From a virus: 64,000 bases of DNA. How positions within the stretch are numbered: position 1 is the first letter of the stretch; each line of letters begins with the position of its first letter. Made by a program: the position numbers and the translations under genes. The notes beneath the pieces were generated by a model. The model had not been told where the DNA came from, did no database searches, and saw only the letters and a list, made by a program, of their open reading frames with translations. The stretch covers positions 5,503-69,502 of IMG/VR virus record IMGVR_UViG_3300042377_000359; one strand, written 5' to 3'. Positions 4,681-32,909 of the stretch are shown here, one piece after another.

Positions 4681-4686
4681 CAACTT

Positions 4687-8400: not shown

Positions 8401-8404
8401 ATAT

Positions 8405-9334
8405 TTATTTTGTAAATTTTTCCTTAACTTGTTCTTTTGCTTCTAAATATGTTGTTTCTTCCCATAAATGCTTATGGTTTTTCCAATGTACTGCGGCTTC
8501 AGTATAGCTCTCACAAGCCATTATCTCTCTGATTGCAATGTCTAACTCGGATTCGATATCTTCGTACTCTATATACTCTGATTTAACCTCTTCGGGAGAT
8601 TCTTCTATTACAATGATTTGTGCCGGAGGTAAAGATAACATCGCATCAATTTTCTGCGCACTTAAAATACCTCTAACTTTATTACCACTCTGTAAATATT
8701 CATTCAACATCTCAATGTGTTGAGGTGATAAATTAGGCACTAAAGATACCACAGGATATTGTGATGCTACGCCTGGTTTTTGTGACTTAACTTTCTTTAC
8801 CGACAAGTCAAATGGGATACCAACGATGCTCCCTGCTTGTTGCTGAACATAATCAAATGTATCACGCAATTGAGGAATAGATGAAGCTTTAGCCATTGTC
8901 TCAAATCTCCATACACCTACTGCAGGAACTTTTGGGATCAAAAATCTTAATGTTAAAGTCAACTTCATAATACCTAACTTTTCAGCAAGCACTATATCCA
9001 TTTCCTTAAACTCATAAGACTCTGTTTTAGCCTCGTAAACTTTCCAATTCTTACCATCGCCTGTAGCAACTAACTTGCCGGCTCTGTCTCTGATAACATA
9101 CTCTTCGTTACATACTGCATCAATATTATCTGATGGGAATATAACTGGTATGGTATCACACTTCTCTCCAAACTGCTCATAAAACATTGGAGCATACTTA
9201 CCGGTAGCCCTAAAGAAATCCAAACTAATTGGATACTCTTTGCCCGATTTTGACAATGCTTTGTCTCCGATTTTAATCTTACCTAATTCCGGTAACTTCC
9301 CTGTGTTAGGGGTATCTCTGATTACTCTGCCCAT
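8405..9334 (-). CDS. Recombination protein of the gp3-like / recombination-directionality-factor-like family
   Basis: LPELGKIKIG..K and LTLRFLIP...GVWRFET motifs; lies between exonuclease and ssb. Confidence 0.65.
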   Translation of the reverse strand: MGRVIRDTPNTGKLPELGKIKIGDKALSKSGKEYPISLDFFRATGKYAPMFYEQFGEKCDTIPVIFPSDNIDAVCNEEYVIRDRAGKLVATGDGKNWKVYEAKTESYEFKEMDIVLAEKLGIMKLTLTLRFLIPKVPAVGVWRFETMAKASSIPQLRDTFDYVQQQAGSIVGIPFDLSVKKVKSQKPGVASQYPVVSLVPNLSPQHIEMLNEYLQSGNKVRGILSAQKIDAMLSLPPAQIIVIEESPEEVKSEYIEYEDIESELDIAIREIMACESYTEAAVHWKNHKHLWEETTYLEAKEQVKEKFTK

Positions 9335-9660
9335 ATTTCTATACCTTTATTTCTTTTGTTAAATGCTGTGTATTGGTATTTGTATTCGCCTCTAGTGTAT
9401 CCAGTCATATTAATAACGCCTGTTTTAACTAATTCAATTTTTGTAATAACAATGTTATCACCTATTACCTGCCCAACATCATAAGCAGATGGGTTGCTTA
9501 TCTCGTACAAACGCATATCAACCTGATCTTGAATGTCATTAAATTCTTTTCTTGTCATGAAGAATTTTGTATCGTAATCAACGCCTTTAAGCTTTTGATT
9601 CATTTTATGAATTGCATACAGCAGAGATGCTGTTACGAGTAATAATGCTAGAATTTCCAT
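9322..9660 (-). CDS. Hypothetical membrane-anchored protein
   Basis: N-terminal TM segment. Confidence 0.6.
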   Translation of the reverse strand: MEILALLLVTASLLYAIHKMNQKLKGVDYDTKFFMTRKEFNDIQDQVDMRLYEISNPSAYDVGQVIGDNIVITKIELVKTGVINMTGYTRGEYKYQYTAFNKRNKGIEIWAE

Positions 9661-9661
9661 A

Positions 9662-10648
9662 CTATACTTTTTTAGATTTTATATATTCAACTATATTTAC
9701 TTTCTTATAATTAGAAGCAACATCCGTGCCAAACTCTCCAATTCCACCAATAATCATAGGATTTTTTGGCTTTATATTGTCGTTGTCAACTCTAATTTTA
9801 TTCATTTGAATCAATGGTTCTAAAAGTTTTGCAACCCATTTATCAGTCTGCTCTTCTAGCTTATAAGTAGGGTTATCTCTCCAATCACTTGGGGCCCAGT
9901 TAAAGACTCTACTAATATTTAAATTAGGGAAGTTTTCATTCCATGTCTTCATATAGCCATGCAATTGTATCACATGTGCATCGTGGAATCCTTTCTTGCC
10001 GGATTTGAAATCAACAATGGCGCGCACTCTGCTAACTTTCTTACTTTCTTTAGGCTCACCTTTTTTCTCACCACTTTTGTAAACCTCACCAAAGAATCCT
10101 TTCTCTTCAATATTCATCTTACACACAAGGTCAATGGATCCGGCCGCACCACATTTAGATGCAAGCGCAATCTCAATTGCAAACGGTTCAAGATTTACAT
10201 CAAATGCAAATTGTTGGAAAGACAATAAATCTTTTCTTAACTCCCAATACCAATTTTTGGTATTCATTCCTGTTTTGAACTGCCAGTCAAGCAATCGGTC
10301 CGGAAGCGTATCGTAATTAATTTTCTTTGCTATCATGAAATCACAAATCTCACTATGCATAAATGTACCATACGAAGCACGCTCATTTTTATAAGCCTCT
10401 GATTCTTCTTTACCAAGACCAATCATCCAATCAATCAAGAATTGATTTGTCGGCATGTTGTTATGGATTAAAGATGTCCAACTTGTATAAAATTTAGGAT
10501 CACCGGTTGTGTCATCAAGCGTATAATAAAATCTATTATCACCGCCATCCATTCGATATAGTTTATACGCAGGCTCTGTTAGGGCTTTGTCATCGAAAAA
10601 CATTGCCTTTACCTGCTCTAGAGTTAACTCTGTTTTAATAGCATCCAT
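9662..10648 (-). CDS. PD-(D/E)XK exonuclease
   Basis: YGTFMH, AGSIDLV, IVDFKSG and QLHGY motifs. Confidence 0.85.
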   Translation of the reverse strand: MDAIKTELTLEQVKAMFFDDKALTEPAYKLYRMDGGDNRFYYTLDDTTGDPKFYTSWTSLIHNNMPTNQFLIDWMIGLGKEESEAYKNERASYGTFMHSEICDFMIAKKINYDTLPDRLLDWQFKTGMNTKNWYWELRKDLLSFQQFAFDVNLEPFAIEIALASKCGAAGSIDLVCKMNIEEKGFFGEVYKSGEKKGEPKESKKVSRVRAIVDFKSGKKGFHDAHVIQLHGYMKTWNENFPNLNISRVFNWAPSDWRDNPTYKLEEQTDKWVAKLLEPLIQMNKIRVDNDNIKPKNPMIIGGIGEFGTDVASNYKKVNIVEYIKSKKV

Positions 10649-10860
10649 CTTTTTACAAATTCTTTAGTTATCATTTCATTTAATTCAAAAAACTCATCCA
10701 TTTCATATACCTCATTATCACCGGTTATGTGATACTTATTAGGCACTATGTATGAGTCCCATATTGTATTTTTAAACACATAGTTTGTAAACCAGTGTCC
10801 CTTACGGAAGAATTCAACTGTGAATCCCATACCATCATAAGTAATTTTCTTTACGGTCAT
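10624..10860 (-). CDS. Hypothetical protein
   Basis: 78 aa ORF in the operon. Confidence 0.6.
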   Translation of the reverse strand: MTVKKITYDGMGFTVEFFRKGHWFTNYVFKNTIWDSYIVPNKYHITGDNEVYEMDEFFELNEMITKEFVKRWMLLKQS

Positions 10861-11411
10861 ATTAACTCAGTTTTTTCGTGAATTTCTTTGTATGTTCCAT
10901 CCTCTTTGATGCAAGCAGTATGCAAAGCAGCAATAGCATTGAATGCAAGCGCAGTCAAATCTGCCTTACTCTTTGTCTTTTGATAGGTACAATAATGTCT
11001 CATTAAACTCGCCAAGCACTCTTCAATAGGAATGCCCAATAGATAATTAGTTGCCCCGAAATCATTTGAATTGTTTGCTAAATGTTGCCCTATAGCCTCT
11101 ATAGCCCATACACTAACCCAGTCTGGTCGAGCCCTGCCGGTGTCATCAGAGCGTACAGCACCACTTGGAAATCTTCTTATTTTTTTAGAAGATTGGATAT
11201 CAAATTTGATGCTAGGGGGCGTTGTTCTTATACCACCGGATCCGGCACTTGCCGCCTCAAAAATAGGCTCACAATGTGGTTTCAATATACCAACAATCTT
11301 ATCATTATCTTTGATAAAATAATGCAACACAGCTTCTCTTTCGACCTCAAATTCTTTTCCAACATATCGTGGATAAGCCCCATCGATATCTAATACTTTA
11401 ATTCTTTTCAT
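10857..11411 (-). CDS. dATP/dGTP diphosphohydrolase-like protein (DUF5664-like)
   Basis: FPSGAVRSDDTGRARPD, NYLLGIP, SLMRH and ALAFN motifs after an unrelated N-terminal domain. Confidence 0.7.
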   Translation of the reverse strand: MKRIKVLDIDGAYPRYVGKEFEVEREAVLHYFIKDNDKIVGILKPHCEPIFEAASAGSGGIRTTPPSIKFDIQSSKKIRRFPSGAVRSDDTGRARPDWVSVWAIEAIGQHLANNSNDFGATNYLLGIPIEECLASLMRHYCTYQKTKSKADLTALAFNAIAALHTACIKEDGTYKEIHEKTELI

Positions 11412-11421
11412 ACCTTTTGTT

Positions 11422-11799
11422 TTATTCGCCTAATAATGTTTGTGACAAAGCTAAATGTTTTTTATTAATTCCTGCTTTTATTTTGTTAAAATCTTTAATG
11501 TATTCTGGGTATCCAATAGATAGATAATCAGTAAGTTGTTGCCTATAATACACGATTGTACTATGGTCTCGCTTGCCCATCATCCTGCCTAATTCTACTG
11601 TCTTGCAGTTTTTTAAGAAATAAGCAACAAACATCCTTGCCCGTACATAGTGATGCTTCCTCACTTTAGAAAACAATTCCTCCCGCGTTATTGAGAAATA
11701 ATCAATAATAACATTAATGACAATTTCAATCTGATCCTCCTTTTCTAAATCCCCCATAGATACTAATCCTGCGTAAGAATATGGATGCATTATAATCAT
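11422..11799 (-). CDS. DnaA C-terminal-like HTH DNA-binding protein
   Basis: SKVRK..VRAR..AYF and GRMMGKRDHSTIVY match the DnaA domain IV RDHTTV signature. Confidence 0.8.
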   Translation of the reverse strand: MIIMHPYSYAGLVSMGDLEKEDQIEIVINVIIDYFSITREELFSKVRKHHYVRARMFVAYFLKNCKTVELGRMMGKRDHSTIVYYRQQLTDYLSIGYPEYIKDFNKIKAGINKKHLALSQTLLGE

Positions 11800-12110
11800 A
11801 TTATATATTCTACCTTTACCCTTGTTAATACTTTAACATCTCTAAGCTCATTGCTAATTACACCATCCTCATATACAAGCACCGTAGCAGTTTCATACGG
11901 AATGCATTCAACCAAATCAAATGACGATGTTTGTACCGGAAGCTCAAATCTATTAGCCTCAAATGTAAACTTAAAATCTTTGGTCCATCGCGTGAAAATC
12001 CATTCACCATCAATAAACATCTCCCCAACTACCGGAAACTCCTTGTCGCTAGCCTCTAATGTAAATAGCTTTACATCGTGACCACCTTTTGTTGTATACT
12101 CTTTTTTCAT
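11796..12110 (-). CDS. Hypothetical protein
   Basis: 104 aa ORF in the operon. Confidence 0.6.
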   Translation of the reverse strand: MKKEYTTKGGHDVKLFTLEASDKEFPVVGEMFIDGEWIFTRWTKDFKFTFEANRFELPVQTSSFDLVECIPYETATVLVYEDGVISNELRDVKVLTRVKVEYII

Positions 12111-12111
12111 A

Positions 12112-12663
12112 TCAATTAATTATTTGTTTTATCTTCAATATATAATTTGAATCTTCAGCGTATACCTGCCCTAAATATTGCAAATACCCCTCACGATCTA
12201 ATCTACTTAAGTACTTATTGTAATATAAAGCGTAGTCAATACAACAGTCACGCCAACTAGCGTAGACTGCATGCCCACCCTCTATGCCTATAGCCGTTGT
12301 TGCCCTTTGTGTAGCAAGCTTCATGCCAAAGCAGTTGTTATTCTCTTTAAATATTGGTGATTTAAACCCACCGGTCTCAAGCTTCGCCTGGGCAATCACA
12401 ATATCTACATTTTTTACATTTAATGCAACTAATTCTTTTCTAAAATTCTCTTCAGTAAACTGCTTGTCTTTAGCATTCATGAGAACAACTATACGATCCT
12501 CCATCCCCTGCAAGGCTTGCCTAACAGGCATTGAATAACCAATCAGTACTGCAATTAAGAGCGCCCAATATGGGAATAAAATTCTAGTTTTGCTAGATAA
12601 ATCTTCAATATTTATCGTTTGGTAGCAAAATAATTTTTCGATTTTCTTCTTTAATCTCAACAT
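12112..12663 (-). CDS. Membrane-anchored glucosaminidase (GH73-like)
   Basis: TM segment, then AQAKLETG, NNCFGMK and YAEDSNY motifs. Confidence 0.85.
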   Translation of the reverse strand: MLRLKKKIEKLFCYQTINIEDLSSKTRILFPYWALLIAVLIGYSMPVRQALQGMEDRIVVLMNAKDKQFTEENFRKELVALNVKNVDIVIAQAKLETGGFKSPIFKENNNCFGMKLATQRATTAIGIEGGHAVYASWRDCCIDYALYYNKYLSRLDREGYLQYLGQVYAEDSNYILKIKQIIN

Positions 12664-12880
12664 AAAATTTAATTAACTGTTTCTTACTAAACCTTTTAAT
12701 TCTACCATTTACTTGTATGTCATATGATTCTGTACAAGAAGGACCAGCACCAAAAGAAATAATCCGTTTGGTGTTTTTAATCCTACCAATAGCATCAATA
12801 TGCGACAACCGGTACAAGTGACCGTCATCAGCTACAAGGTAATCGGGGGCAAAACTTAATCTATACTTTTCCTTTAACAT
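12605..12880 (-). CDS. Hypothetical protein, NUMOD4-like
   Basis: DYLVADDGHLYRL...GR pattern, no HNH domain. Confidence 0.4.
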   Translation of the reverse strand: MLKEKYRLSFAPDYLVADDGHLYRLSHIDAIGRIKNTKRIISFGAGPSCTESYDIQVNGRIKRFSKKQLIKFYVEIKEENRKIILLPNDKY

Positions 12881-13091
12881 TTCTACATAAATAAGCTAAA
12901 TAACATATTAAATTCATATCGACTATAAAAACGTACAGTATTGCGTACACTATTAAGGACGTTATTTTTAAATCTACCACATAGAATAGTATGAGGCATA
13001 ATAATGTAATACTAAATCCTAACTGTGTCCTATTTATAGTACACAACCAAAATCCAATCAATGTAAATACTGCTAATAATATTCCTATCAT
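12861..13091 (-). CDS. Small membrane protein
   Basis: Almost entirely hydrophobic 76 aa. Confidence 0.55.
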   Translation of the reverse strand: MIGILLAVFTLIGFWLCTINRTQLGFSITLLCLILFYVVDLKITSLIVYAILYVFIVDMNLICYLAYLCRNVKGKV

Positions 13092-13119
13092 AATTTTATT
13101 TTTATACTTACCTTTCGCG

Positions 13120-13293
13120 TTAGTAATTTCTTAAACCATTAATTAGTTTCTCTCTAATATCGCCTGCATCTACCTGCTTCTTTAATAACATCTTCATCAA
13201 ATAATAGCCTTGCATAACCTTGTTAGTCTGGCCATCTACAATTGCTTGGTTATACAATCGTCTTACTCTTTGGATTCTTTTATCGTAGTTCAT
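13120..13293 (-). CDS. Hypothetical protein (57 aa, below track cutoff)
   Basis: MNYDKRIQRVRRLYNQ...LRNY*, ATGA-coupled to the upstream gene, fills the gap. Confidence 0.6.
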   Translation of the reverse strand: MNYDKRIQRVRRLYNQAIVDGQTNKVMQGYYLMKMLLKKQVDAGDIREKLINGLRNY

Positions 13294-13589
13294 AAAATTT
13301 GTGCTAATTCGTGTTTGATAATTAAACTATCTAATTTGGTGAATGATCCTATATGGAAATCATAATAACAATCTAACTCCAATGGCGCTCCCTCTTTCCA
13401 ATCATAAACCGTGCCAACGGATCCGTCATGTGCAATCACGCACCATTCCATATTTACCTTATCCTCACCATCATTGTTTATAGATGCCGGCTGACCCAGT
13501 ACTTTGATTAATTTGTTTGGTGTGGTGTTAACAACGCAATGGTGAAACGATGTTCCCATTGTTTGAGATTCGTCATCTAATCTTTTCAT
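13290..13589 (-). CDS. Conserved phage hypothetical protein
   Basis: GTSFH...LG.P...DKVNMEW...TVYDWK...FHIG pattern common in phage early regions. Confidence 0.7.
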   Translation of the reverse strand: MKRLDDESQTMGTSFHHCVVNTTPNKLIKVLGQPASINNDGEDKVNMEWCVIAHDGSVGTVYDWKEGAPLELDCYYDFHIGSFTKLDSLIIKHELAQIL

Positions 13590-13813
13590 AATGAATATTT
13601 GTTTTTAAATTGTTCGTAAATACTAACTCTTTGTTCTAAATCGTAGCCACACCACTCGCTCCGGATCCCATCAAGCATCTCATCAACTGATGGCTCAACC
13701 TTGTCAAGTAAATCAACACCAAAGATGTCATGCAATGCTACAAATGGTAAGTTTTTAAACCATAACATTAGATATTCCTCGATATCTAATATTTCATTTT
13801 CTAAATTTCTCAT
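13586..13813 (-). CDS. Hypothetical acidic protein
   Basis: 75 aa, ATGA-coupled. Confidence 0.65.
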   Translation of the reverse strand: MRNLENEILDIEEYLMLWFKNLPFVALHDIFGVDLLDKVEPSVDEMLDGIRSEWCGYDLEQRVSIYEQFKNKYSL

Positions 13814-14256
13814 GCTTTTTTTATTTCTTCCTCTAATAATATATCTAAAATGTCATATTGAGATTCATATTCTTCACCTCTAAACTTATAAGTTCCTTCT
13901 TCTTCATCTTCTTCTATCTCTTCGAAATGTGAATCTTCAAGATCATATATGGAGATAAATTCTCCATCGAATATTGCACAACCATAAATCTCGCAACCAA
14001 GCTCTTCATAATAATATTCATATTTCAATCCAAACTTCAATGCAAGCGCATGTATTTGTAAAATGTCTGGCCCCCATTTAGTAATAAAATTAAGCCTTTC
14101 AGAGTCTGCATCTATATCAAAACAATATTTATCATACTCACCATCAAGTAAGAAAATATCATTACCATCTTCTTTTATGCGAGATTTAATAAATTCCATA
14201 CACTCTGATACTTTACCCCCTTGGAATAAAATACTATTGTTACAATCGTTTGCCAT
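13810..14256 (-). CDS. DUF1281/YubB-like ferredoxin-fold acidic protein
   Basis: MANDCNN start, F.TKWGP and YYYEELGCE..G motifs; very acidic tail. Confidence 0.6.
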   Translation of the reverse strand: MANDCNNSILFQGGKVSECMEFIKSRIKEDGNDIFLLDGEYDKYCFDIDADSERLNFITKWGPDILQIHALALKFGLKYEYYYEELGCEIYGCAIFDGEFISIYDLEDSHFEEIEEDEEEGTYKFRGEEYESQYDILDILLEEEIKKA

Positions 14257-14257
14257 A

Positions 14258-14659
14258 TTATTTCCATTGTGAAATTACACTATAATAATAATCATATATC
14301 CCGTTAAATATGTCTTGAGCTTCTTCTGTATATGTGCTATTACCATCCATATCAAATTCATACATTAACGCTTCTTCTTCTTCTTCAAGAGAATCGTTAT
14401 CAAACATTTCTATCTTCGTTTGGTTGTCTGCAAGTTCCGATGCAAGCTCCACAATGTTAACGCACACCATTGAGTCATTTAGATCAGCCTCGTAGGTATC
14501 GAACTCATAGATATTAGTATTGATCATGTCGCAGTTTATAGTGGTTATAAACCAATCTACCGACCAGACTAGACCATTGTCTTCTGCCCATTGTAATTTT
14601 TCTTCTTTTGTTTGCTCGTGCATTTTAAATGGCGATGCAAAGATTCTTTTTTCTTTCAT
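14258..14659 (-). CDS. Hypothetical acidic protein
   Basis: 133 aa; YTEEAQDIFNGIYDYY C-terminus. Confidence 0.65.
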   Translation of the reverse strand: MKEKRIFASPFKMHEQTKEEKLQWAEDNGLVWSVDWFITTINCDMINTNIYEFDTYEADLNDSMVCVNIVELASELADNQTKIEMFDNDSLEEEEEALMYEFDMDGNSTYTEEAQDIFNGIYDYYYSVISQWK

Positions 14660-14663
14660 GTTA

Positions 14664-15086
14664 CTATTTATTTATTTTTTCTGAATAAATTGATTGAGAA
14701 TATTCTCCAACTATATAAACGCAAATCTCATTATACTCTGCGCAGTAATGAATGTCAAAATTATCTTCACCAATCCAAAAATCGGGATCTATAATTTGGA
14801 ACTTAAAGATGTGAGTAGCGTTGTTGTAAACAAATTTAATAGTTCTACTTTTTATTTCAAAAATATAACCAATTTGTTCCAACTCTGCTTTTAAATCTTT
14901 GTACTGGTCCTCGGTTGCATCGGGTAATTCATTCAATGCATCTATATGACATCCCGAATGCTGACCTATGTGCATATAAGAATCTACCATATCTTTACCA
15001 TGAAATTCCACATTATATAGGTTGTCGGGAAAGATTGCTAACACTTCATCGTCAAGAATTTTGAATACCACTTTTGTTGTTTCCAT
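14664..15086 (-). CDS. Conserved phage hypothetical protein
   Basis: VLAIFP...SYMHIGQHS...ATEDQYKDLKAELEQIGY pattern. Confidence 0.7.
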   Translation of the reverse strand: METTKVVFKILDDEVLAIFPDNLYNVEFHGKDMVDSYMHIGQHSGCHIDALNELPDATEDQYKDLKAELEQIGYIFEIKSRTIKFVYNNATHIFKFQIIDPDFWIGEDNFDIHYCAEYNEICVYIVGEYSQSIYSEKINK

Positions 15087-15088
15087 AG

Positions 15089-15379
15089 TTATTTTGTTTT
15101 AGGTGAATAAGTTATTACTTGACATACAAATTCGATAGCATCGTTTATGATTTGATAAATCTCTTCTTCAGTTTTGTTATAGATAGGATTATTTGATATC
15201 ATTCGCATAAATGTTTCAGTAGTGTATGGGCATGGTTTAGAAAAATAATAATCTATATGCTCATCTTTTTCGGTAATACCTTGATGAAAATTCAATCCTA
15301 CAATGTTGTCTTCTTCGTAGGTGATAAAGATGTACCTATCGTACTCTTCGCTTTTTAATACTTTTAAGATTTGTTCCAT
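15089..15379 (-). CDS. Hypothetical protein
   Basis: 96 aa; AGTT-ATG start context. Confidence 0.65.
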   Translation of the reverse strand: MEQILKVLKSEEYDRYIFITYEEDNIVGLNFHQGITEKDEHIDYYFSKPCPYTTETFMRMISNNPIYNKTEEEIYQIINDAIEFVCQVITYSPKTK

Positions 15380-15381
15380 AA

Positions 15382-15678
15382 CTACTGGTTGTTTTTATAT
15401 TGGTTTATAACTTTTTCTATCTCAACTATTGATAAAATATCATCGTTTAATATACTTTGCACTTCGTTTATAAAACTTTCTTTTTTCTTATAATTTAAAA
15501 AAAGACAAATGCAGTCATATGTTGATTTATTAACATCGTTATAACGACTATTGATAAATTCATTATACAAAATAACAAATTCGGCAAATTGTACATCATA
15601 AGGCTCTTCTAAAAGGTCCTTGCGTTTATATCTTGCTAACTCGCAAAATAGGAAAAAATCGTAATTTAATGTCTCCAT
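15382..15678 (-). CDS. Hypothetical protein
   Basis: 98 aa; AGTT-ATG start context. Confidence 0.65.
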   Translation of the reverse strand: METLNYDFFLFCELARYKRKDLLEEPYDVQFAEFVILYNEFINSRYNDVNKSTYDCICLFLNYKKKESFINEVQSILNDDILSIVEIEKVINQYKNNQ

Positions 15679-15682
15679 AACT

Positions 15683-16189
15683 TTATAAATTGTTGTTTAA
15701 AATAAATTCGTTATCTAATAATTTAGCATTGATTTCTGATAGCTTTTGATTGAAAGCAAAATCACTATATACTGATTTAGAAATTTCAAGCATTGCATAT
15801 CTATTCGTATTCAAATCACCCCACAAAATACCTTTTTTCATTTTAGATCCTAACTTCTTCTGCACTTCCATCAATTCGAATAAATAGTCGGCCATATTTG
15901 AGAAACGAATATCTTCAAATTTCCATACAAATGTTGTTGGATATGGACTAAAATTGTAATGCTGATGCGTTCTTTCTTTCCAACCGTTTTCTATCAATAT
16001 TTTTTCTACCAATTCGGTATCAAACTGATAGTCGGCCCCACCTCCCCATCCATCATCGTTAACATAACCAATTTTCTTACCATCAACCCATACATCTGCG
16101 TAGAATCCTTGCAAATCATGACCAAACCCGTTTTTAATGTTTTTTAGCTTTATTCTCCTTGAGATATCAGCCGGAATTAATAATTTCAT
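15683..16189 (-). CDS. Conserved phage hypothetical protein
   Basis: Probable start MKLLIP at 16189; FYADVWVDGKKIG.VNDDGWGG motif. Confidence 0.65.
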   Translation of the reverse strand: MKLLIPADISRRIKLKNIKNGFGHDLQGFYADVWVDGKKIGYVNDDGWGGGADYQFDTELVEKILIENGWKERTHQHYNFSPYPTTFVWKFEDIRFSNMADYLFELMEVQKKLGSKMKKGILWGDLNTNRYAMLEISKSVYSDFAFNQKLSEINAKLLDNEFILNNNL

Positions 16190-16313
16190 TTTTATACTTG
16201 TTTTTGTAATACTACTACCCAAAGCCCCGTTTGGATTACTTTCCACCCCTGCGATTGTAATTTACTCAACTTCTTAAGCCCAGTATCACTATCAATCATT
16301 ATTTGTTTATACT

Positions 16314-16601
16314 TTATTGACAACACAATTCCCAAGCCTCCATCTTCTTAATGGATCTACCATTTAAACCTAACTGCGCAACAATAAACTTCGCTAACTT
16401 CTTTGTGCCGGTATCGGTATCTAATCGATTTGTACCAATTGCATTTACAACATCAGCAGGATCCATGCCTAATACCCTTGAGCAAAATTTAACATCTTGC
16501 CCTAAATAAAAGCTTTTCATTGTTGTTTTTGTCTCACATTGTAGCGTCCATTCGTGACCGAATCCGTAACTACCATCTATTACTATAATATTTGCTTTCA
16601 T
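16314..16601 (-). CDS. Conserved phage hypothetical protein
   Basis: FYLGQDVKFCSRVLGM motif. Confidence 0.7.
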   Translation of the reverse strand: MKANIIVIDGSYGFGHEWTLQCETKTTMKSFYLGQDVKFCSRVLGMDPADVVNAIGTNRLDTDTGTKKLAKFIVAQLGLNGRSIKKMEAWELCCQ

Positions 16602-16608
16602 AACTTTT

Positions 16609-16833
16609 TTAATTATTGTATAACTTATCTAACATTTCTTCTTCCAAATCCTCTAAATCCTCATCGCTGATACCTTCCCAACCACTTCTCCAACTGAATT
16701 GGGTATAATACTCACTCCAAACTACTATAGCCGAAACTTCGCGTTCTTTATCATCAACAATTACCCAGCAGTATAGAACATAAACAGTTTCTACTGTTTT
16801 AATTTCTTTTGCAAAGTTTTTAATTTCTAACAT
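16609..16833 (-). CDS. Hypothetical acidic protein
   Basis: Probable true start MLEIKNF at 16833; the longer track ORF overlaps a better gene in another frame. Confidence 0.6.
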   Translation of the reverse strand: MLEIKNFAKEIKTVETVYVLYCWVIVDDKEREVSAIVVWSEYYTQFSWRSGWEGISDEDLEDLEEEMLDKLYNN

Positions 16834-16846
16834 TTTGCCCTCCTTT

Positions 16847-17011
16847 TTAAAATTGATAATTTTCTGAATCAACCTCTTCCACATTTGAATAATGCGCCTC
16901 TGCAAATTCTTCTGCGTCTTCTTTTGTTTTGAATGATTGGATGTATGGCTCATATTCACCATCAACTAGCCTTTGATACCTAACTTCGTAGGTGATTACT
17001 TTTTTCGCCAT
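16847..17011 (-). CDS. Hypothetical acidic protein (54 aa, not in track)
   Basis: MAKKVITYEVRYQRLVDGEYEPYIQSFKTKEDAEEF...YQF*. Confidence 0.6.
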   Translation of the reverse strand: MAKKVITYEVRYQRLVDGEYEPYIQSFKTKEDAEEFAEAHYSNVEEVDSENYQF

Positions 17012-17204
17012 TGTCTTTTAAATTAATTAACCATGTATTTACTTCTGCTGCTTTCTCATCAAAGGATCCCCAAAATAATGGGTAACCCTTTGATAATAAT
17101 TCAGATTGCTCATCGGATAATTCATACCAATGATTTGTCAACTCATCCATAGCTTTGGATAAATTCTCTACTAATTGAATAGTAGTAGGTGATAGTGCTT
17201 TCAT
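16980..17204 (-). CDS. Hypothetical protein
   Basis: 74 aa, ATGA-coupled. Confidence 0.6.
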   Translation of the reverse strand: MKALSPTTIQLVENLSKAMDELTNHWYELSDEQSELLSKGYPLFWGSFDEKAAEVNTWLINLKDNGEKSNHLRS

Positions 17205-17569
17205 TTTCTTTCTAATTGATAAAGCGCCAATTCAAATTCTTTTGTCATTTCCTCGAAATCGTAAACCCTTTTATTGTCGTCGTCTTCGTCTTCGTAGTAA
17301 TAAATAGGAATATTTATATTATTTGAAGGGTTTAAGTAATTTAATAAATTAACTTCCATTATTAAATTTACATCTGCTCCCCACTCTTCGTTTAAGAATA
17401 CAATTACCGATTTTTCATCTTTTAAATCATGAATTTCCCAATCCGTATCCCATCCATCATCAATTTTTTCTTCTGCAAATGCTCTTAATTTTTCCCATCC
17501 TTCAAAGAATCCCATGTTTTCATTAAATTCTCTTTCAATTACTTGATAAATTTTAATTTTTGTTTCCAT
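17201..17569 (-). CDS. Hypothetical acidic protein
   Basis: 122 aa, strongly acidic; PIYYYEDEDDD...VYDFEEM. Confidence 0.65.
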   Translation of the reverse strand: METKIKIYQVIEREFNENMGFFEGWEKLRAFAEEKIDDGWDTDWEIHDLKDEKSVIVFLNEEWGADVNLIMEVNLLNYLNPSNNINIPIYYYEDEDDDNKRVYDFEEMTKEFELALYQLERK

Positions 17570-18384
17570 TATGCATATAGTCTATTGTCTTTTATATATT
17601 GTCTTCTATTAGCTTTTTTGATTTCAGTTTGTAGCTGACTGATTGCACCCCTAACTACAAAACCAGTAGTATCTTTCTTTGCCTTACCTTTAGCTTTTAA
17701 CCCTACAACACAATTCTTTTTGTGCAAGAATGTAAGGTCATGCTCATCACCATCAATAACCTCATAGCCCTCCCACTTTGTAGGCTTACCATCAAACACT
17801 ACTGCTACATTGAACCCTCGCTTTAAAGCCATCAACGCTTCTATGTGATTGTCTTCCGTCTCTTTGCGTGAGAATGTTAGATGTAAGTTACTCGGCACAT
17901 TACCAAGCCTTTTGTATATTGCCGTATAGTCATAGAATTGAACATCGGGAAACATCTCGAATATATTATTATAGCCGTCAACTTTTATATGCTCGTATGG
18001 TATGTCCGTAGTACCATTTAGCCTAATAGCTATATTCTCTTTTTTATTCTTGACTGCTCGCTTAATTTCCTTGACCATCATTTGCATGAATGCCTCTCTA
18101 TCTCGCAAAAAGAATTCAGTTTTATTTAACCTCCCAATGATCACATTTTCTTGAAACCCACCTCTACCACTTGTAACAAGGCAAGCTTTCTTGCATCCCT
18201 CCGTAGCTTTGGCGCATAGGTTTTTGCCCATACTATTGATGTCAGCAGGCGTACCATAAAGTATAAATGTTTTATACCCTAATTTCTCGCCCTTGATTGT
18301 TTTAGCATTATCAACGCCAAACAATGTTGTAGGTTTTTTGTATTCCCAAAATAACCCTTTCAAATAATTCTTGAAATTACTCAT
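17569..18384 (-). CDS. Gene 88 (GP88)-like protein, Fe-S / radical-SAM-like
   Basis: NLCAKATEGCKKACL (CX6CX3C), IRLNGTTD, FYDYT, HLTFSR, DGDEHDL and GLKAKGKAK motifs. Confidence 0.8.
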   Translation of the reverse strand: MSNFKNYLKGLFWEYKKPTTLFGVDNAKTIKGEKLGYKTFILYGTPADINSMGKNLCAKATEGCKKACLVTSGRGGFQENVIIGRLNKTEFFLRDREAFMQMMVKEIKRAVKNKKENIAIRLNGTTDIPYEHIKVDGYNNIFEMFPDVQFYDYTAIYKRLGNVPSNLHLTFSRKETEDNHIEALMALKRGFNVAVVFDGKPTKWEGYEVIDGDEHDLTFLHKKNCVVGLKAKGKAKKDTTGFVVRGAISQLQTEIKKANRRQYIKDNRLYA

Positions 18385-18404
18385 ATGTATATATAATTAA
18401 ATTG

Positions 18405-18764
18405 TTATAATTCTGCATCAAATCTGCAACTACCTTGCGCAATTATACAATCTCTAATTTGGATCCCAAGCTTAAGATCAGCATAGTCGGATAGCATTTC
18501 GTCGGTTAAACCAATATCTTTTAACATCTTCTCATTATAACCATTGATATATGCAAAAAATTCTTGAATCTTTTGTAGGTTATCTCCTAATGATGCTTGA
18601 ATATTGTTAATTTCTTGCATCACGCCATCCAAATGGTCTTCGTCAAAATAATACTCAATATATTGGGGTTCATTTGCTTCCCCACCAAATCTACTTGCTG
18701 CGTCACTTGATTGTACTGCGAACCAAAATTTACCTTCGATGTCGCCCGTGTAATATCTACCCAT
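18405..18764 (-). CDS. Conserved phage hypothetical protein
   Basis: Probable start MGRYYTGDIEGKFWFAVQSS at 18764; ends C...G.C.FDAEL. Confidence 0.7.
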   Translation of the reverse strand: MGRYYTGDIEGKFWFAVQSSDAASRFGGEANEPQYIEYYFDEDHLDGVMQEINNIQASLGDNLQKIQEFFAYINGYNEKMLKDIGLTDEMLSDYADLKLGIQIRDCIIAQGSCRFDAEL

Positions 18765-18981
18765 AACTTTATTTTTTGTTTTTAAATTGTTTATAAAATA
18801 ACACCCTAATTTATCCAACTTGCAGGTGTTTTGGCTGTCCCTATTTATAGGTTAGGAATAAACTTTTGGTAATAGATAGTCAATCTAAATAGAACCTTGT
18901 TCTATCATCAAGCCCATATGGTTATCACACCATTTCTTATCGTATTGGGCATACTATTTGGTGATTAGCCAAATCGTTTCT

Positions 18982-19212
18982 TTATAGCTTACTGCTAAAA
19001 TACATTTTTAACTCTTCTACATCTATGTTGCTAAAATAATCTTCAACATATCTAAAAAATTCTGCTTGTTGCCCTTGCATGCCCTCCTCTAAATCTTCAA
19101 ACAAGATTTTAGCTTGTCTATGTTGACCGTTATTTTTGCTTTCAAGTATATACTCGAAATAGTCTTCAATCGTTTCCATTTGTAACGATTGTAATGTTAG
19201 TATTCCTACCAT
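18982..19212 (-). CDS. Hypothetical protein
   Basis: YFEYILESKNNGQ..QA pattern. Confidence 0.65.
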   Translation of the reverse strand: MVGILTLQSLQMETIEDYFEYILESKNNGQHRQAKILFEDLEEGMQGQQAEFFRYVEDYFSNIDVEELKMYFSSKL

Positions 19213-19224
19213 AACTTTGTTTTT

Positions 19225-19458
19225 TTAATTGTTTAACATTTGATTTAACTCTTTTTTAATTTCTCTTGCTTTTTCGCCTTTCCATGTTTGTGCATTGGCT
19301 AAAAAATACATGATAATTTCTCTTGCGTCATCTAAATAATATTTGTCGTTTATACTATTTAAACTGCCCATTGCCTCTAAATATGGTTCTGCCCCATAGT
19401 TTACTTTGGTCCAATCTGCGCGTATTTCTTTTGCGATTTGATAAATTAGTCTCTGCAT
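19225..19458 (-). CDS. Conserved phage hypothetical protein
   Basis: IAKEIRADW..V.YGAEPYL.AM...YFLANA.TWKGEKAREIK.EL pattern. Confidence 0.75.
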   Translation of the reverse strand: MQRLIYQIAKEIRADWTKVNYGAEPYLEAMGSLNSINDKYYLDDAREIIMYFLANAQTWKGEKAREIKKELNQMLNN

Positions 19459-19488
19459 GGTTTTTTATTTTTTTAAATTGTTTATAAT

Positions 19489-19716
19489 TTATATTTCTTC
19501 TTCTTCTTCTTGTATTCCTAAATTTTCAAATACCCATTCTGTATCAAACCATAAAATATCGTTTAGTTCTGTTTCAGATAGTCCAGATGGATATAGCTCT
19601 TCAATAAGAAAGTCAAATTCATTTTCTTTCTTATGTTTTAAAATCGTGTTTTTTGTGTCAATTGCCCCGCTCCATGCGTTGAATTCTACCAATGTGGTTT
19701 CGATGTAAATTTTCAT
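19489..19716 (-). CDS. Small acidic protein, anti-restriction candidate
   Basis: F.AWSGA.DT...ETELNDILWFD pattern, poly-Glu tail. Confidence 0.6.
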   Translation of the reverse strand: MKIYIETTLVEFNAWSGAIDTKNTILKHKKENEFDFLIEELYPSGLSETELNDILWFDTEWVFENLGIQEEEEEI

Positions 19717-19734
19717 TGTTTTGTTTCTAAATTG

Positions 19735-20169
19735 TTATAAAATATCGTTCTCACTAAATGAATAATAACTTTCTTTCGTAAGGATCACATGATCTATTAG
19801 TTTGCATTCTAATAAATCAAGCACACTTTTTAATTTCTTTGTGATTTGTTTATCGGGTTCACTTGGATGCAACGACCCACTTGGGTGATTGTGCGCAACC
19901 ATGCAAGCACTTGCTAAACTATCAATCACATACTTTGCAATTATCTTGACATCTACAACCGTTCCCACTATACCACCTTGACTAATCTTAACATAGCCTA
20001 TAGTTTGGTTTGCTCTATTTAATAGCACCAAAAAGAAGCTCTCATAAACCTCTATATCATCCCCCCAAAATTGTCGCATGTATCTTTGCGCATCGTGAGG
20101 GCTACCTATTTGTCGAACCTCTACATTTGTGGGTTCTTTCTTTAATGAATAATTTGAAATTGTCTCCAT
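19735..20169 (-). CDS. radC: RadC-like JAB domain protein
   Basis: ESFFLVLLNRAN, ISQGG, AHNHPSG..HPS..D and LIDHVI motifs. Confidence 0.92.
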   Translation of the reverse strand: METISNYSLKKEPTNVEVRQIGSPHDAQRYMRQFWGDDIEVYESFFLVLLNRANQTIGYVKISQGGIVGTVVDVKIIAKYVIDSLASACMVAHNHPSGSLHPSEPDKQITKKLKSVLDLLECKLIDHVILTKESYYSFSENDIL

Positions 20170-20171
20170 AA

Positions 20172-20336
20172 CTACATTGAATAATTTCTTTTAAAATAAA
20201 TGTATGCTTCTTTTCGGGTCATACCTATCCGATACAAACTGCATTGCGCCCGATATTCGTTCGCTCCAGTCTTTATGACATTGTCAGATTTTAGCCACCA
20301 TAAAAAATTATGGTAATTTGTTAAATCTCTTTTCAT
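20172..20336 (-). CDS. Hypothetical protein (54 aa, not in track)
   Basis: MKRDLTNYHNFLWWLKSD...RNYSM*, fills the gap. Confidence 0.6.
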   Translation of the reverse strand: MKRDLTNYHNFLWWLKSDNVIKTGANEYRAQCSLYRIGMTRKEAYIYFKRNYSM

Positions 20337-20341
20337 CTTTT

Positions 20342-20572
20342 CTATTTTTTAAATGGGGTTACTACTGCATCTTGATATCCGTCATAAAATGCGTCTTCTA
20401 TTAATTCCTTTTCCAATAATCTTGCCTTAAATAAAATCATTTCTATATCGTTATTATACGGGTTTTGAAATTCCGACAAATGCGCTATAAAAAAATCTAC
20501 TACTGATTTGTTTGGTCTTTTTAAATTTCCAACCTTGTTAGAATTTAACCATTTTATAAAATCTTCGCTCAT
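20342..20572 (-). CDS. Hypothetical protein, distant relative of the MEKQTA family
   Basis: Probable start MSEDF; KARLLEKELIEDAFYDG resembles QAKEMEKEQMKDAWDDG. Confidence 0.55.
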   Translation of the reverse strand: MSEDFIKWLNSNKVGNLKRPNKSVVDFFIAHLSEFQNPYNNDIEMILFKARLLEKELIEDAFYDGYQDAVVTPFKK

Positions 20573-20688
20573 TTGCTTAAGTACATTAATAACCAACCAT
20601 AAAACCCTACAAAAAATAGGATCACAATTCCAAAGCCTAAAATTATCTCTATAATTTCGCGCTCGTCTTCCGTGTATTTTGTCTTCAT
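20569..20688 (-). CDS. Small membrane protein (39 aa, not in track)
   Basis: MKTKYTEDEREIIEIILGFGIVILFFVGFYGWLLMYLSK*, ATGA-coupled to the next gene. Confidence 0.55.
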   Translation of the reverse strand: MKTKYTEDEREIIEIILGFGIVILFFVGFYGWLLMYLSK

Positions 20689-20689
20689 C

Positions 20690-20959
20690 TTACTTCTTTT
20701 TTGATTTGAAATATTCAAGTTCATCTGGCGCCAGCATATTTATATATGTCTCTATTTCTATCCCATTATCATAAACAATGCTATAAAGATTTGCGTTTTC
20801 ATCATTATAAACGCTCTTAACAAAATCAACAATTTCATCCATCTCGTCAAACTCTTCACTTATAGAAAAATCTTTTGCTAATTGCTCCAAATCTTCTAAA
20901 TTATCACTTGTGTATATCTCTTTATACAATGTGATTGAATACTTTTTTTCTTGTATCAT
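20690..20959 (-). CDS. Hypothetical acidic protein
   Basis: 89 aa, strongly acidic. Confidence 0.65.
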   Translation of the reverse strand: MIQEKKYSITLYKEIYTSDNLEDLEQLAKDFSISEEFDEMDEIVDFVKSVYNDENANLYSIVYDNGIEIETYINMLAPDELEYFKSKKK

Positions 20960-20979
20960 GTTTTTTTATTTATGTAAAT

Positions 20980-21028
20980 TAGCCCCTCAAATGCAATTCG
21001 ATTGCCTCCACTTTTATAGGTTTGAGGG
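20980..21028 (-). ncRNA. tRNA top-half mimic B
   Basis: CCCTCAA + 14-nt linker + AGGCA-ATCGAAT-TGCAT + TTGAGGG + G + CTA: 7-bp acceptor stem, 5-bp T-stem with one mismatch, 7-nt T-loop. Confidence 0.55.
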
Positions 21029-21032
21029 TATT

Positions 21033-21063
21033 AAAAAAGCCCCATACAAATTGCATGGGGCTT
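21033..21063 (-). terminator. Intrinsic terminator, possibly a conditional attenuator
   Basis: AAGCCCCATGC-AATTT-GTATGGGGC-TTTTTT on the minus strand. Confidence 0.8.
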
Positions 21064-21448
21064 GTTAGTTTATCACTTGTTTTAATTCACTACCTTATTA
21101 CTTTTGAGGCGCGCCAAGCCCCGCGTTTCTTGATACATTACATACCCTTACAAACGCACCGAAAAAATCTATACTTTTACAATAGATGCAAATTCGTGTT
21201 ATCCCTTGCTTGAAAATAATTAAAACGCCTTACTAACATAACTCGTCGCTATGCCGTCCTATTAAATTAATAATAGATAAGCGCCCAAAGGCTTGATTTG
21301 TGATAAGCAAAGATACGCGTTTAAGCTACGAAAATAGTCGAGGGTGTTCAAGTCTCTTAATGCTAATATGGAGCGAATAGCGTCGCATAAACTATGCCTT
21401 TCGGCTTTTCTATTTTCAGCGCCCCTTTGCCGTATGCAAAGGGTAAAA
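21064..21448 (-). ncRNA. Large structured non-coding RNA candidate
   Basis: No minus-strand ORF in the track; many hairpins and nested long-range helices, with G-U pairs that form only on the minus strand. Confidence 0.6.
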
Positions 21449-21496
21449 TTGAGGGCGTAATAGGTTGCGAGCCTATTTAATAACGCGTATACGCCC
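21449..21496 (-). ncRNA. tRNA top-half mimic A
   Basis: GGGCGTA + 13-nt linker + ATAGG-CTCGCAA-CCTAT + TACGCCC + T + CAA: perfect 7-bp and 5-bp stems with a 7-nt loop. Confidence 0.6.
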
Positions 21497-21503
21497 TATT
21501 GTA

Positions 21504-22187
21504 TTAATTTGAGCCTACAAAGGTAGTTAAGCCCAATTCCGCGCGTATAGCTTGATAATGAGCCTCGCGAGCCTCGCGCAATGATTTGCGTTCGAGGGCT
21601 TTCAATTCCGCTTGCGCGCTTGATAGGTTGCGCGCTTCGTATATTTTTTGACGCTCCTTTAAAGGCAAGGCATTAAAATTGGCTCTATTCAATTCGGCTT
21701 CAAGGCGTTTCTTTTCTTTTCTATCGGCTTCCGCTATGCAATGCGCGCCACCAATTTCTGACGGCTTCATAAGCCTATTTTCGTCAGTAATTTCTTGCGT
21801 TAATTCAAACAATGTCTGAGCCAATTCGCGCGCGCTTGTATAGTCATTATTCAAGCGAAAAGGAAAAGCGAATTTTTCAACGCCCCTAATTTCCGTTATA
21901 AATTTTTCGGCTAATACTAAGCTATCAAATTTAAAAACGGCTTCCTCGCTTTCTATTGTTATATAGATATCTTTATTTGATTTTACGCCTAAATTGCGCC
22001 CATGCTTGCGCGCTATCTTATATAGCGTGTAAAACTTGTTAACAATACCGCCTATTAATTCTTCAAGGCTAATTTCATGCGCTTGTTTAGATACCTCGAA
22101 GTTTTTTAAGGTATACTCAAAGCTTGTGTTTTTTGCGTCGTCTAATTGATAAAAAGAAACCGCGAAATTTGTTGTTAATTTTTCCAT
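21504..22187 (-). CDS. First early gene, hypothetical protein with C-terminal coiled coil
   Basis: Probable start MEKLTTNF at 22187; preceded by a TATGTTCG -7-like box (22243-22250) and a hairpin at 22217-22237; atypical GCG/CGC-rich codon use. Confidence 0.7.
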   Translation of the reverse strand: MEKLTTNFAVSFYQLDDAKNTSFEYTLKNFEVSKQAHEISLEELIGGIVNKFYTLYKIARKHGRNLGVKSNKDIYITIESEEAVFKFDSLVLAEKFITEIRGVEKFAFPFRLNNDYTSARELAQTLFELTQEITDENRLMKPSEIGGAHCIAEADRKEKKRLEAELNRANFNALPLKERQKIYEARNLSSAQAELKALERKSLREAREAHYQAIRAELGLTTFVGSN

Positions 22188-22285
22188 GATATTTATATAT
22201 ATAAAATTGTTTAAATTGATTAGCACCGCGCTAATCATAAAACGAACATAATACTATATATTTAATTTTTATACCATACTACTTA

Positions 22286-22370
22286 ATTTAGAACCAATCT
22301 AAATAGGCCAGAATCGCTGGAATAGCTATAAACACTACTATTTGAGGGCTTATTTAGAATTAATCTAACT
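22286..22370. promoter_or_regulatory. Pair of 19-bp palindromic operator-like sites
   Basis: ATTTAGA-ACCAA-TCTAAAT (22286-22304) and ATTTAGA-ATTAA-TCTAACT (22352-22370), upstream of the early promoter. Confidence 0.6.
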
Positions 22371-22676
22371 TTTATCCATACTATTAATAAAGCCTAAATA
22401 AGTAAAAATATAGCTAAAATGTAGGTATATGCAGTAAAGGTATATTTATCGTTTTTGATAGTCAATAGAGAGTAAATTTAGGCGTAAAAAAATACCACAA
22501 ATTAAGCCCAAAAAAGAGACACAAAAGAGACAAAAAACAAGGGCAAAAAATAGCTTAAAAAAAAATAGCCGTTTGCCTGGTCAACTCTTTTGATCACAAA
22601 AATTATATATATATTTTTTACATGCAAGGGGAGGGGAGGGGCTATAGTATACCAAAAAAAAGGGGCGCGAAGTTCT

Positions 22677-22704
22677 ACTTAACATAATGATAATTATAAG
22701 ACAA
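22677..22704 (-). other. Xer dif-like recombination site
   Basis: Minus strand TTGTCTTATAA-TTATCA-TTATGTTAAGT: 11-6-11 layout, XerD arm one base off E. coli TTATGTTAAAT. Confidence 0.75.
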
Positions 22705-22790
22705 AAGGAGCGCTTTGCCCTTTGCCCTATTAGCGCCAAAATTACAGGAGGGCTTGAAAAAAAATAAAGCGCTTAAAATAGGTGTACACG

Positions 22791-23145
22791 GGTAACGGGA
22801 ATTTAATTCCCATACCGACGCGCCACCCCCCGATCAGGATGGATAATCCCCACCTCTACTATTCACAACTTTTTTAAAAATTTTTTAAAATTTAAAATTG
22901 TGGAAAAACTCTACCGGTAACACGTGGTAACACAAAGTGCCCCTACATATATCTAAACCCAATATATACCAGTTACCATGTTACCAAGAAGAAAAGAGTT
23001 TTAATTTTTAATATATATAATATATATAATATAAGGGGTAATATAATAAGATATATCAAATCGCAAATTACCATGGTAACCTGGTAATTGTTGGAATGGA
23101 GCTTGGAAATGCGGATTGCGTTACCAGCAGTACCGGTCCGTTACC
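22791..23145. repeat. GGTAAC/GTTACC iteron cluster, putative replication origin
   Basis: GGTAAC at 22791, 22916, 22926, 23075; GTTACC at 22972, 22980, 23120, 23140; GGTAAT/ATTACC variants; AT-rich core near 23000-23060. Confidence 0.65.
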
Positions 23146-23215
23146 AGGTGATAAAAAAATTTTATATTACTAATATTATTATATATATTTGTGCAATCAC
23201 TAATCAGGTTAAGGT

Positions 23216-32581: not shown

Positions 32582-32872
32582 GGGCCTGACTGGAATCGAT
32601 CGGGCAAGTAAGTATTATAGACAGGGAGTGGTGACAAGCTTTTGTTACAAACAATTAAATGGCAAACCTGAATTATCGAGTGTAGGTATCGAGGATATCC
32701 TTGCTCACGTTGAAGCTAATACTGTAGAATACAAGTTAGCAGCCTAATTTTGAGTTTCTTGGAACTTTAAACCAAGTGGTGGAGCGGTTGTTCTAAGCAA
32801 CCCCAATAACCTTGTAAAAACTCTATAATATAGATGTGCATCGACACGAGAGTTCGAATCTCTCCAGGTCCA
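32582..32872 (+). ncRNA. ssrA: tmRNA
   Basis: GGGCCTG/CAGGTCC acceptor with G3-U wobble and A discriminator; T-arm GAGAG-TTCGAAT-CTCTC; tag frame 32661-32747 GKPELSSVGIEDILAHVEANTVEYKLAA* after TTAAAT. Confidence 0.93.
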
Positions 32873-32909
32873 CTAATGATTTGGATTTGTTTTTTTCGTA
32901 TATTTGTAT

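Follow-up and report, generated by a model that had tools for sequence, protein, structure and literature searches.

A noncoding gap with a predicted promoter, a candidate attenuating leader, and an intrinsic terminator ahead of the leftward gene block of a phage found in lake water

The CI RNA of phage P4 and the C4 RNA of phages P1 and P7 are leader-derived immunity RNAs in which a short sequence is complementary to two others and transcription terminates prematurely. The put RNA of HK022 and the nut sites of lambda work through processive modification of RNA polymerase, not through an alternative hairpin set against one terminator. Terminator-based riboswitches are less typical in Bacteroidota, and to our knowledge little is known about the timing of early transcription in Bacteroidota phages. 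Here we describe a 544-nucleotide (nt) gap, positions 20960 to 21503, in a 64,000-nt stretch of viral DNA (the window), which comprises bases 5503 to 69502 of a virus record that is 69.5 kb long and has direct terminal repeats. On the minus strand, this gap separates a gene for a 227-residue protein from a leftward block of co-oriented genes. It is a real and unusual noncoding region whose anatomy consists of a predicted promoter box, a predicted closing helix and the domain that it encloses, a candidate switch strand, and a terminator. The reading that we put forward, with confidence somewhat short of even, is that of a composite control region in which a promoter-proximal leader would attenuate entry into the leftward block.

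An intrinsic terminator, claimed in an earlier sequence-only reading of this DNA, is present on the transcribed strand as a G+C-rich stem-loop (stem at 21063-21037) with 12 pairs, 6 of them G-C, followed by TTTTTT and calculated at -19.3 kcal/mol; on the plus strand, the stem is not followed by a T-run. This terminator lies about 50 nt past the domain enclosed by the closing helix (P1), 440 nt beyond the stop codon of the upstream gene, and 77 nt ahead of the first gene of the block. It is the sole strong minus-strand site of its type across the leftward block, except for a stem at the far end (6896-6879). All of the sequences named in the earlier reading were found and are complementary, with the 5' arm of the terminator, CAAGCCCC, located at 21064-21057, one base away from where it had been placed. 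The exact complement that had been reported for this arm was confirmed as GGGGCTTG at 21122-21115 (8 nt, -14.3 kcal/mol). The segment containing it, designated strand 2, has a further possible partner near the 5' end of the leader, where UCAAGCCUU (21296-21288) pairs with GGGGCUUGG (21122-21114) to form P1 and CAAGCC stands opposite GGCTTG at 21120-21115.

Exact complements of at least 8 nt to the terminator arm arose within the last 120 nt in 27 of 5,000 dinucleotide shuffles; when the full 440 nt was allowed, the count was 105 of 5,000. For the switch strand, an exact complement of at least 6 nt was present within 178 nt upstream in 24 of 3,000 shuffles and within 381 nt in 345 of 3,000. Three of the 22 window copies of CAAGCC/GGCTTG are packed into 236 nt of the gap. 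The energy of pairing between the arm and the 120 nt upstream was -10.7, compared with -5.2 +/- 2.5 in shuffles (7/300), and was unremarkable at three control terminators of the phage.

The predicted leader is a noncoding RNA of about 270 nt extending from approximately 21303 to the terminator. In the ensemble of the full leader RNA, P1 has a probability (p) of 0.82 and the terminator has a p of approximately 1.0, and strand 1 is paired in the minimum free energy (MFE) structures of RNAs starting at 21300-21303. The combination of P1 and terminator (1:2 plus 3:4) was calculated at -68.1 kcal/mol, compared with -62.9 kcal/mol for the forced antiterminator (2:3). In the nascent RNA extending to 21056, the antiterminator is preferred (-56.6 versus -48.8 kcal/mol), and in an RNA ending at 21052 it reaches a p of 0.98. 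The mutually exclusive folds that had been proposed from the antiterminator complement and a second CAAGCC are therefore present in the modelling. A difference in folding between the strands is confined to the central 187 nt, with -43.9 kcal/mol for the minus strand (z, -1.79; 9/200 shuffles) and -23.7 kcal/mol for the plus strand (z, -0.42).

Under the attenuator model, the first approximately 190 nt past the stop codon would be the 3' untranslated tail of the 227-residue protein gene, with two hairpins, and a host-type (Bacteroidota sigma-A) promoter at 21315-21304 would start transcription near 21303. The 5' CAAGCC of the resulting leader of about 270 nt would pair with GGCUUG 175 nt downstream, closing a multi-hairpin domain, and GGGGCUUG would choose between this 5' CAAGCC and the terminator arm, making up a four-strand attenuator. 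Once polymerase had passed the first terminator arm but not the second, the favored fold would be the 2:3 antiterminator, and read-through would follow. If the closing helix and its domain were stabilized, strand 2 would be locked, the terminator would form, and transcription would stop. The stabilizer could be a metabolite or a protein of either phage or host, or folding kinetics alone could suffice. The operation of such a regulatory switch is offered here as a model with modest statistical backing. If it is correct, a host-type promoter, a structured leader, and one terminator would constitute a simple checkpoint for the whole early block.

The promoter assignment comes from a 12-mer, TATMTTTGCTTA, of which the window holds four copies versus 0.11 expected, a number reached in none of 100 shuffles. 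Three of the copies are intergenic on the plus strand, immediately 5' of genes whose starts lie at 2082, 39871, and 45636, and the fourth is on the minus strand at 21315-21304, within the gap. In PMC6847099, TAnnTTTG is given as the -7 element of Bacteroidota sigma-A (T-12, A-11, T-8, T-7, T-6, G-5), and TATCTTTG agrees with this consensus. The same paper places the -7 box 4 to 5 nt from the transcription start in Bacteroidota, which for this box predicts a start at approximately 21303-21302. The box at 21315 is the sole minus-strand TAT[AC]TTTG from 6934 to 22800, and a scan with TANNTTTG found no canonical minus-strand -7 box in the stretch that leads from the terminator to the ATG (20959). 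Because no canonical box is found there, entry into the block is probably achieved by read-through. An attenuating leader is the most economical reading, since no canonical promoter was seen between the terminator and the first gene and the whole block has no strong canonical box other than that at 21315. We infer from its sequence that the promoter at 21315-21304 fires. The features of the gap and its surroundings are collected in Table 1.

Table 1. Coordinates of the features in and around the gap and of the plus-strand promoter boxes of the window
Feature	Position	Strand	Remark
Upstream gene, 227 residues	21504..22187	-	Start moved from 22238 to 22187
3' untranslated part of upstream gene and promoter-upstream region	21316..21503	-	Two stable hairpins
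Hairpin GGGCGTA...TACGCCC	Directly after stop codon of upstream gene	-	
Hairpin CCCTTTGC-5-GCAAAGGG	21443-21423	-	p = 1.0, -13.0 kcal/mol
Predicted Bacteroidota-type -7 box, TATCTTTG plus CTTA	21304..21315	-	TATCTTTG itself at 21315-21308
Strand 1, 5' strand of closing helix P1, UCAAGCCUU	21288..21296	-	CAAGCC at 21295-21290
Predicted P1-enclosed domain, 165 nt	21123..21287	-	Four or five hairpins, p 0.77-0.99
Domain hairpin CUAUUA-6-UAAUAG	Within 21123..21287	-	
Domain hairpin GGCAUAGC-GACGA-GUUAUGUU	Within 21123..21287	-	
Domain hairpin AUCUAU-9-AUAGAU, then U6	Within 21123..21287	-	
Domain hairpin CGUUU...AAACG	Within 21123..21287	-	
Strand 2, candidate switch strand GGGGCUUG(G)	21114..21122	-	Possible partners: strand 1, strand 3, or GCCUC at 21110-21106
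Strand 3, terminator 5' arm CAAGCCCC	21057..21064	-	Exact complement of strand 2
Intrinsic terminator	21031..21063	-	12-bp stem, 3-nt loop, U6; p = 0.95 in 544-nt RNA
Stretch from terminator to ATG, 77 nt	20960..21030	-	Hairpin CCCUCAAA...UUUGAGGG (21028-20984), p = 0.96
First block gene, 89 residues	20690..20959	-	Function unassigned
Leftward block	20959 to 6934 (about 14 kb)	-	Co-oriented genes
TAT[AC]TTTG boxes directly 5' of genes	2057, 2889, 3198, 6394, 23184, 26275, 26574, 31130	+	Intergenic
TAT[AC]TTTG boxes directly 5' of genes, continued	32899, 35839, 39814, 39859, 45622, 51259, 59024	+	Intergenic

As in a Firmicutes-type transcriptional OFF riboswitch, the predicted leader has its promoter a few nucleotides before P1, a multi-hairpin domain of about 165 nt inside P1, a P1 3' strand exactly complementary to the 5' arm of the terminator, and the genes to be regulated after the terminator. 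Unlike such riboswitches, it matches no Rfam family, and the genes that it would regulate are phage early or DNA metabolism genes rather than those of a metabolic pathway. With the trp-type four-segment attenuator the leader would share its position before an operon and the alternation of 1:2 plus 3:4 (termination) with 2:3 (read-through); it differs in that segments 1 and 2 lie 165 nt apart and in that it has no conserved leader peptide. The likeness to the P4 CI and P1/P7 C4 RNAs is functional only and consists of one segment with two alternative complements before an operon. Those RNAs belong to phages of a different host phylum, and no lysogeny genes were seen near the leader; the C4 family, presumably part of the Rfam set that we searched, gave no match to it. 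To put and nut the resemblance is likewise functional, namely, an RNA of a phage that acts in cis ahead of terminators and admits polymerase to early genes, whereas the leader resembles them in neither sequence nor structure. Its only boxB-like part is a short GCC-GAAA-GGC hairpin, which lies upstream of the predicted start and has an ensemble p of 0.03. None of the titles listed in a literature search concerned a riboswitch of a phage early operon.

The earlier reading did not recognize the RNA as a known family, and the Rfam search agreed with this. With Rfam 15 at gathering scores, the sole match in the window was a transfer-messenger RNA (tmRNA) at 32582-32875, and with all 4,227 families at E values of up to 10, the interval 20700-21800 gave chance-level matches only (MicC, 27.3 bits versus a gathering score of 90; PyrR, 22.6 versus 54). 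A known RNA family was thus rejected for the leader, as was a tRNA or tRNA-like gene, because ARAGORN finds only the tmRNA in the window; the two bracketing hairpins of the tRNA-like candidate do fold, at -14.3 and -14.0 kcal/mol. The phage tmRNA lies on the plus strand and scores 49.4 bits against RF00023 (gathering score, 47); ARAGORN predicts for it a 28-residue tag with a KLAA end. Nor was a conserved leader peptide, as for a leader peptide attenuator, seen: a 13-nt indel in a relative interrupts the 20-codon open reading frame (ORF) at 21239-21177. Another candidate ORF, MYQETRGLARLKSNKVVN, of 18 codons (21138-21082, minus strand), overlaps the switch strand and stops 17 nt short of the terminator arm, and the context of its start codon is poor.

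We judge it improbable that the P1-closed 165-nt domain (21296-21114) serves as the aptamer for a class of riboswitch not yet described, or as part of a leader that senses a protein. If it did, a Bacteroidota phage would use it to sense either a metabolite of its host or one of the early phage proteins, and one terminator would decide the entry of host RNA polymerase into a 14-kb block of early and DNA metabolism genes. Binding of a small molecule by the domain would make it a new class of riboswitch, with a virus sensing the state of its host.

A relative with approximately 91% identity, found in public contigs from an RNA library, covers 19735-22185, including the gap; such RNA library contigs do not reveal strand, ends, or expression level. 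Its alignable gap parts differ by about 9% (9/101, 21/223, and 61/689, the last piece including part of a gene). In the RadC gene, about 28 of the 31 changes listed fall at one codon position, corresponding to some 20% of third positions. The relative retains the terminator hairpin, with one G.U pair reading A-U, while the 38-nt spacer ahead of it is swapped for about 15 other bases and 13 nt are missing near 21207-21219. The indels are thus located in a spacer and in a linker, and the linker near 21207-21219 would be dispensable, since the 13 nt are absent from the relative. Three of the six readable substitutions in predicted stems change a G.U to a Watson-Crick pair, two of them within one 30-nt stretch. 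Taken together, the relative weakly supports constraint on a minus-strand RNA and is neutral as to a switch. Contig breaks at 21062 and 21101 coincide with the hairpin and may be assembly artifacts.

A number of results weigh against an attenuating leader. Energy models alone do not single it out as a switch, because shuffled leaders behave alike: 209 of 400 pair at least 8 arm bases upstream in the nascent fold, 118 of those 209 also restore the terminator and re-pair the partner strand, and 31 of the 400 mimic the full switch with a partner at least 100 nt away, like the real leader. Pairing of the arm with 236 nt upstream is not unusual in energy (44/300 shuffles), and the motifs were selected after the sequence had been read, so that shuffle frequencies overstate significance. 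The z score of the central domain is -1.79, that of the whole gap is modest and shows no strand preference (-2.58 for the minus strand versus -2.61 for the plus strand), and the probability of P1 is about 0 in transcripts started upstream of the promoter. A weight matrix built from 15 plus-strand promoters ranks the box at 21315 54th of approximately 128,000 positions, with a score of 7.1 compared with 11 to 23.6 for the training sites; the low rank is due to the G+C-rich flank upstream of the box. In the relative, the three other stem substitutions break pairs unless their partners, which were not seen, compensate, and the terminator 5' arm reads CAGCCCC, leaving at most six antiterminator pairs if strand 2 is unchanged. 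The idea that the region gates read-through into the block of about 14 kb, advanced in the sequence-only reading, keeps its terminator ahead of the first gene and is weakened by the switch-like behavior of the shuffled leaders. Overall, the earlier observation is partly confirmed and its interpretation partly supported.

The main rival of an attenuating leader is a stand-alone, trans-acting phage small RNA (sRNA) of about 270 nt that is bounded by the promoter and the terminator, with the block served by a noncanonical promoter of its own. We consider this unlikely but deserving of serious weight, as it fits the promoter-RNA-terminator layout about as well as an attenuator does. A promoter, no ORF, and a strong terminator are the textbook layout of an sRNA gene; the terminator, with its U6 and an energy and ensemble probability as given above, would end such an RNA, and P1 would close the molecule with a pairing of 5' and 3' parts as in many stable RNAs. 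Noncanonical promoters must exist, since other minus-strand blocks (helicase and primase) also have no canonical -7 box. If the RNA were an sRNA, on the other hand, chance would have to explain the exact 8-nt match of strand 2 to the terminator arm, which is of a kind seen in 27 of 5,000 shuffles. Furthermore, the 77 nt leading up to the ATG show no promoter, and no sRNA family of Rfam was matched, MicC remaining far below its gathering score. A stand-alone RNA of 270 nt would, if real, be a large phage sRNA without a known family. The gap could also be an ordinary intergenic control region in which the terminator ends the upstream transcript, the box and palindromes are DNA signals, and the pairings are incidental; to this we assign a rather low probability. 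Such a region would agree with the modest whole-gap folding that is equal on both strands, with the 31 of 400 shuffled leaders that mimic the switch, with a 9-nt inverted repeat (ATACGCGTT/AACGCGTAT) whose second copy abuts the promoter box, and with ACGCGT palindromes at 21489-21484 and 21320-21315 as signals at the DNA level. An unrelated gap of the same size in a distant relative also holds repeated DNA motifs and a terminator. A position 440 nt past the stop codon would nevertheless be odd for a plain gene-end terminator, and the G+C content of the gap (38 to 39%) exceeds the mean of the window (34%) and, by a wide margin, that of the neighboring control region (23 to 33%). Chance pairing is hard to reconcile with the exact-match statistics of strands 1 to 3, the central domain folds very differently on the two strands, and the alignable gap parts seem more conserved than synonymous sites.

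Least likely of the readings, and in our view very improbable, is the one first proposed, in which a single processed or switching RNA of about 540 nt, transcribed from the promoter of the upstream gene, would span the whole gap and be held together by long-range helices. Its named segments are all complementary, and RNA library contigs of the relative run unbroken from the upstream gene over 21315 to 21220, although DNA may be present in that library. The extensive minus-strand folding on which it was based was confirmed only weakly, with an MFE of -144.9 kcal/mol and a z score no better than that of the plus strand. Local hairpins CCCTTTGC, GGCATAGC, and ATCTAT, together with the terminator, have probabilities of at least 0.85 in the 544-nt ensemble, in line with the original description. 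The long-range helices AAACGCG (21322)/TGCGTTT, TATCTTTGCTT/AAGCAAGGGATA, and GAAAATAG/CTATTTTC, in contrast, have probabilities of no more than 0.01 each. One claimed helix arm, TATCTTTGCTT, is the promoter family 12-mer itself, the AAACGCG at 21322 lies just upstream of the box, and the 13-nt deletion of the relative takes part of AAGCAAGGGATA. One large RNA is therefore probably not what the gap encodes, since a predicted promoter of the phage's own promoter family lies within the region at 21315-21304.

The noncoding status of the gap, also claimed before, was borne out. No plausible ORF was found in 20960-21503 with code 11, with code 4, or with TAG read as glutamine, and ATG-started ORFs comprise only 1 to 25 codons. 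The relative carries a 1-nt deletion at 21394, within the sole long stop-free frame of the gap, and larger indels as well. A hidden coding sequence was rejected on the basis of the three codes and of the 1-nt and 13-nt indels.

The gene upstream of the gap is assigned the start at 22187 instead of 22238 because three relatives of its product (90 to 92% identity) all start where the 244-residue ORF has M18. Its protein is a near-orphan, with 2 representatives among 1.84 billion proteins; besides the three close relatives, one at 36% identity is known. No Pfam or PHROG match and no usable ESM Atlas match was obtained for it, and its AlphaFold model (predicted local distance difference test [pLDDT], 53.6) is too poor for use. 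Arg, Lys, and Glu abound in its C-terminal half, for which a helical structure is predicted. In the segment between this gene and the predicted leader, 21316-21503, folding z scores are -1.74 for the minus strand and -1.08 for the plus strand. The inverted repeat ATACGCGTT/AACGCGTAT is perfect over 9 nt and based on the ACGCGT palindrome. One copy (21482-21490) follows closely on the stop of the upstream gene; the other (21313-21321) abuts the promoter box. From their sequence and placement, the two copies could be an operator pair.

Apart from the relative described above, homologues of the gap were sought in several ways. No gap-like DNA was found in a phage database search, and IMG/VR gave no match to the terminator as an exact pattern, to a three-motif switch pattern, or to the 244- and 89-residue ORFs. 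Scans of metagenome contigs with flanking-protein queries (alignment A1, P0003) and of genome contigs and IMG/VR with flanking-protein alignment A2 likewise returned no match. Twelve loci with a GP88-like protein (40 to 46% identity) had no nhmmer or blastn likeness to the gap. One of the IMG/VR contigs, L014, encodes a primase with 97% protein identity, but the leftward block is absent; at 6800-13280 it has wholly different genes in place of the control region and leftward block, with a mosaic junction near position 24060 of the window. The distant relative L002 (GP88-like protein, 46% identity) has an unrelated 544-nt gap at 4351-4894 within the same operon; TGTATACA-like motifs recur throughout it, and an A+T-rich hairpin in it precedes a T-run.

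Genes are densely packed in the window, and the gap is the second largest after the divergent control region at 22188-23215. The leftward block encodes small unknown proteins, RadC, a GP88-like protein, a DnaA C-terminal helix-turn-helix protein, SSB, a Gp3-like protein, a glucosaminidase, and others. Phage genes have no Shine-Dalgarno sites, and TAT[AC]TTTG is found close upstream of many genes on the plus strand, which together point to a Bacteroidota host; by its promoter type, this host would be a freshwater species. Several of these plus-strand boxes stand right after the T-run of a terminator. Minus-strand blocks mostly have no TAT[AC]TTTG box, for example upstream of the helicase and primase genes, and the phage probably has a second type of promoter, given these box-poor blocks; a search ahead of them for a common noncanonical motif, [GC][GC]TATAAA, gave no clear pattern. 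The N terminus of the primase is a BT4734-like domain.

Sequence words of the stretch were present at 99 to 100% in 14 lake water runs. Smaller shares were found in 10 further runs, namely, 8 DNA runs (4 of them also labeled lake water), 1 unlabeled run, and 1 RNA library. The control region of about 1 kb at 22188-23215 has many GGTAAC/GTTACC repeats at approximately 22900-23150, long T-runs, and a cumulative GC skew minimum, and is likely an origin or operator region. A replication origin within the gap is unlikely, as these repeats and the skew minimum fall in 22188-23215. In the same region, two unrelated runs both show a depth of about 170 to 180 in the bin at 22582-22715, suggesting an element that is repeated or widely shared.

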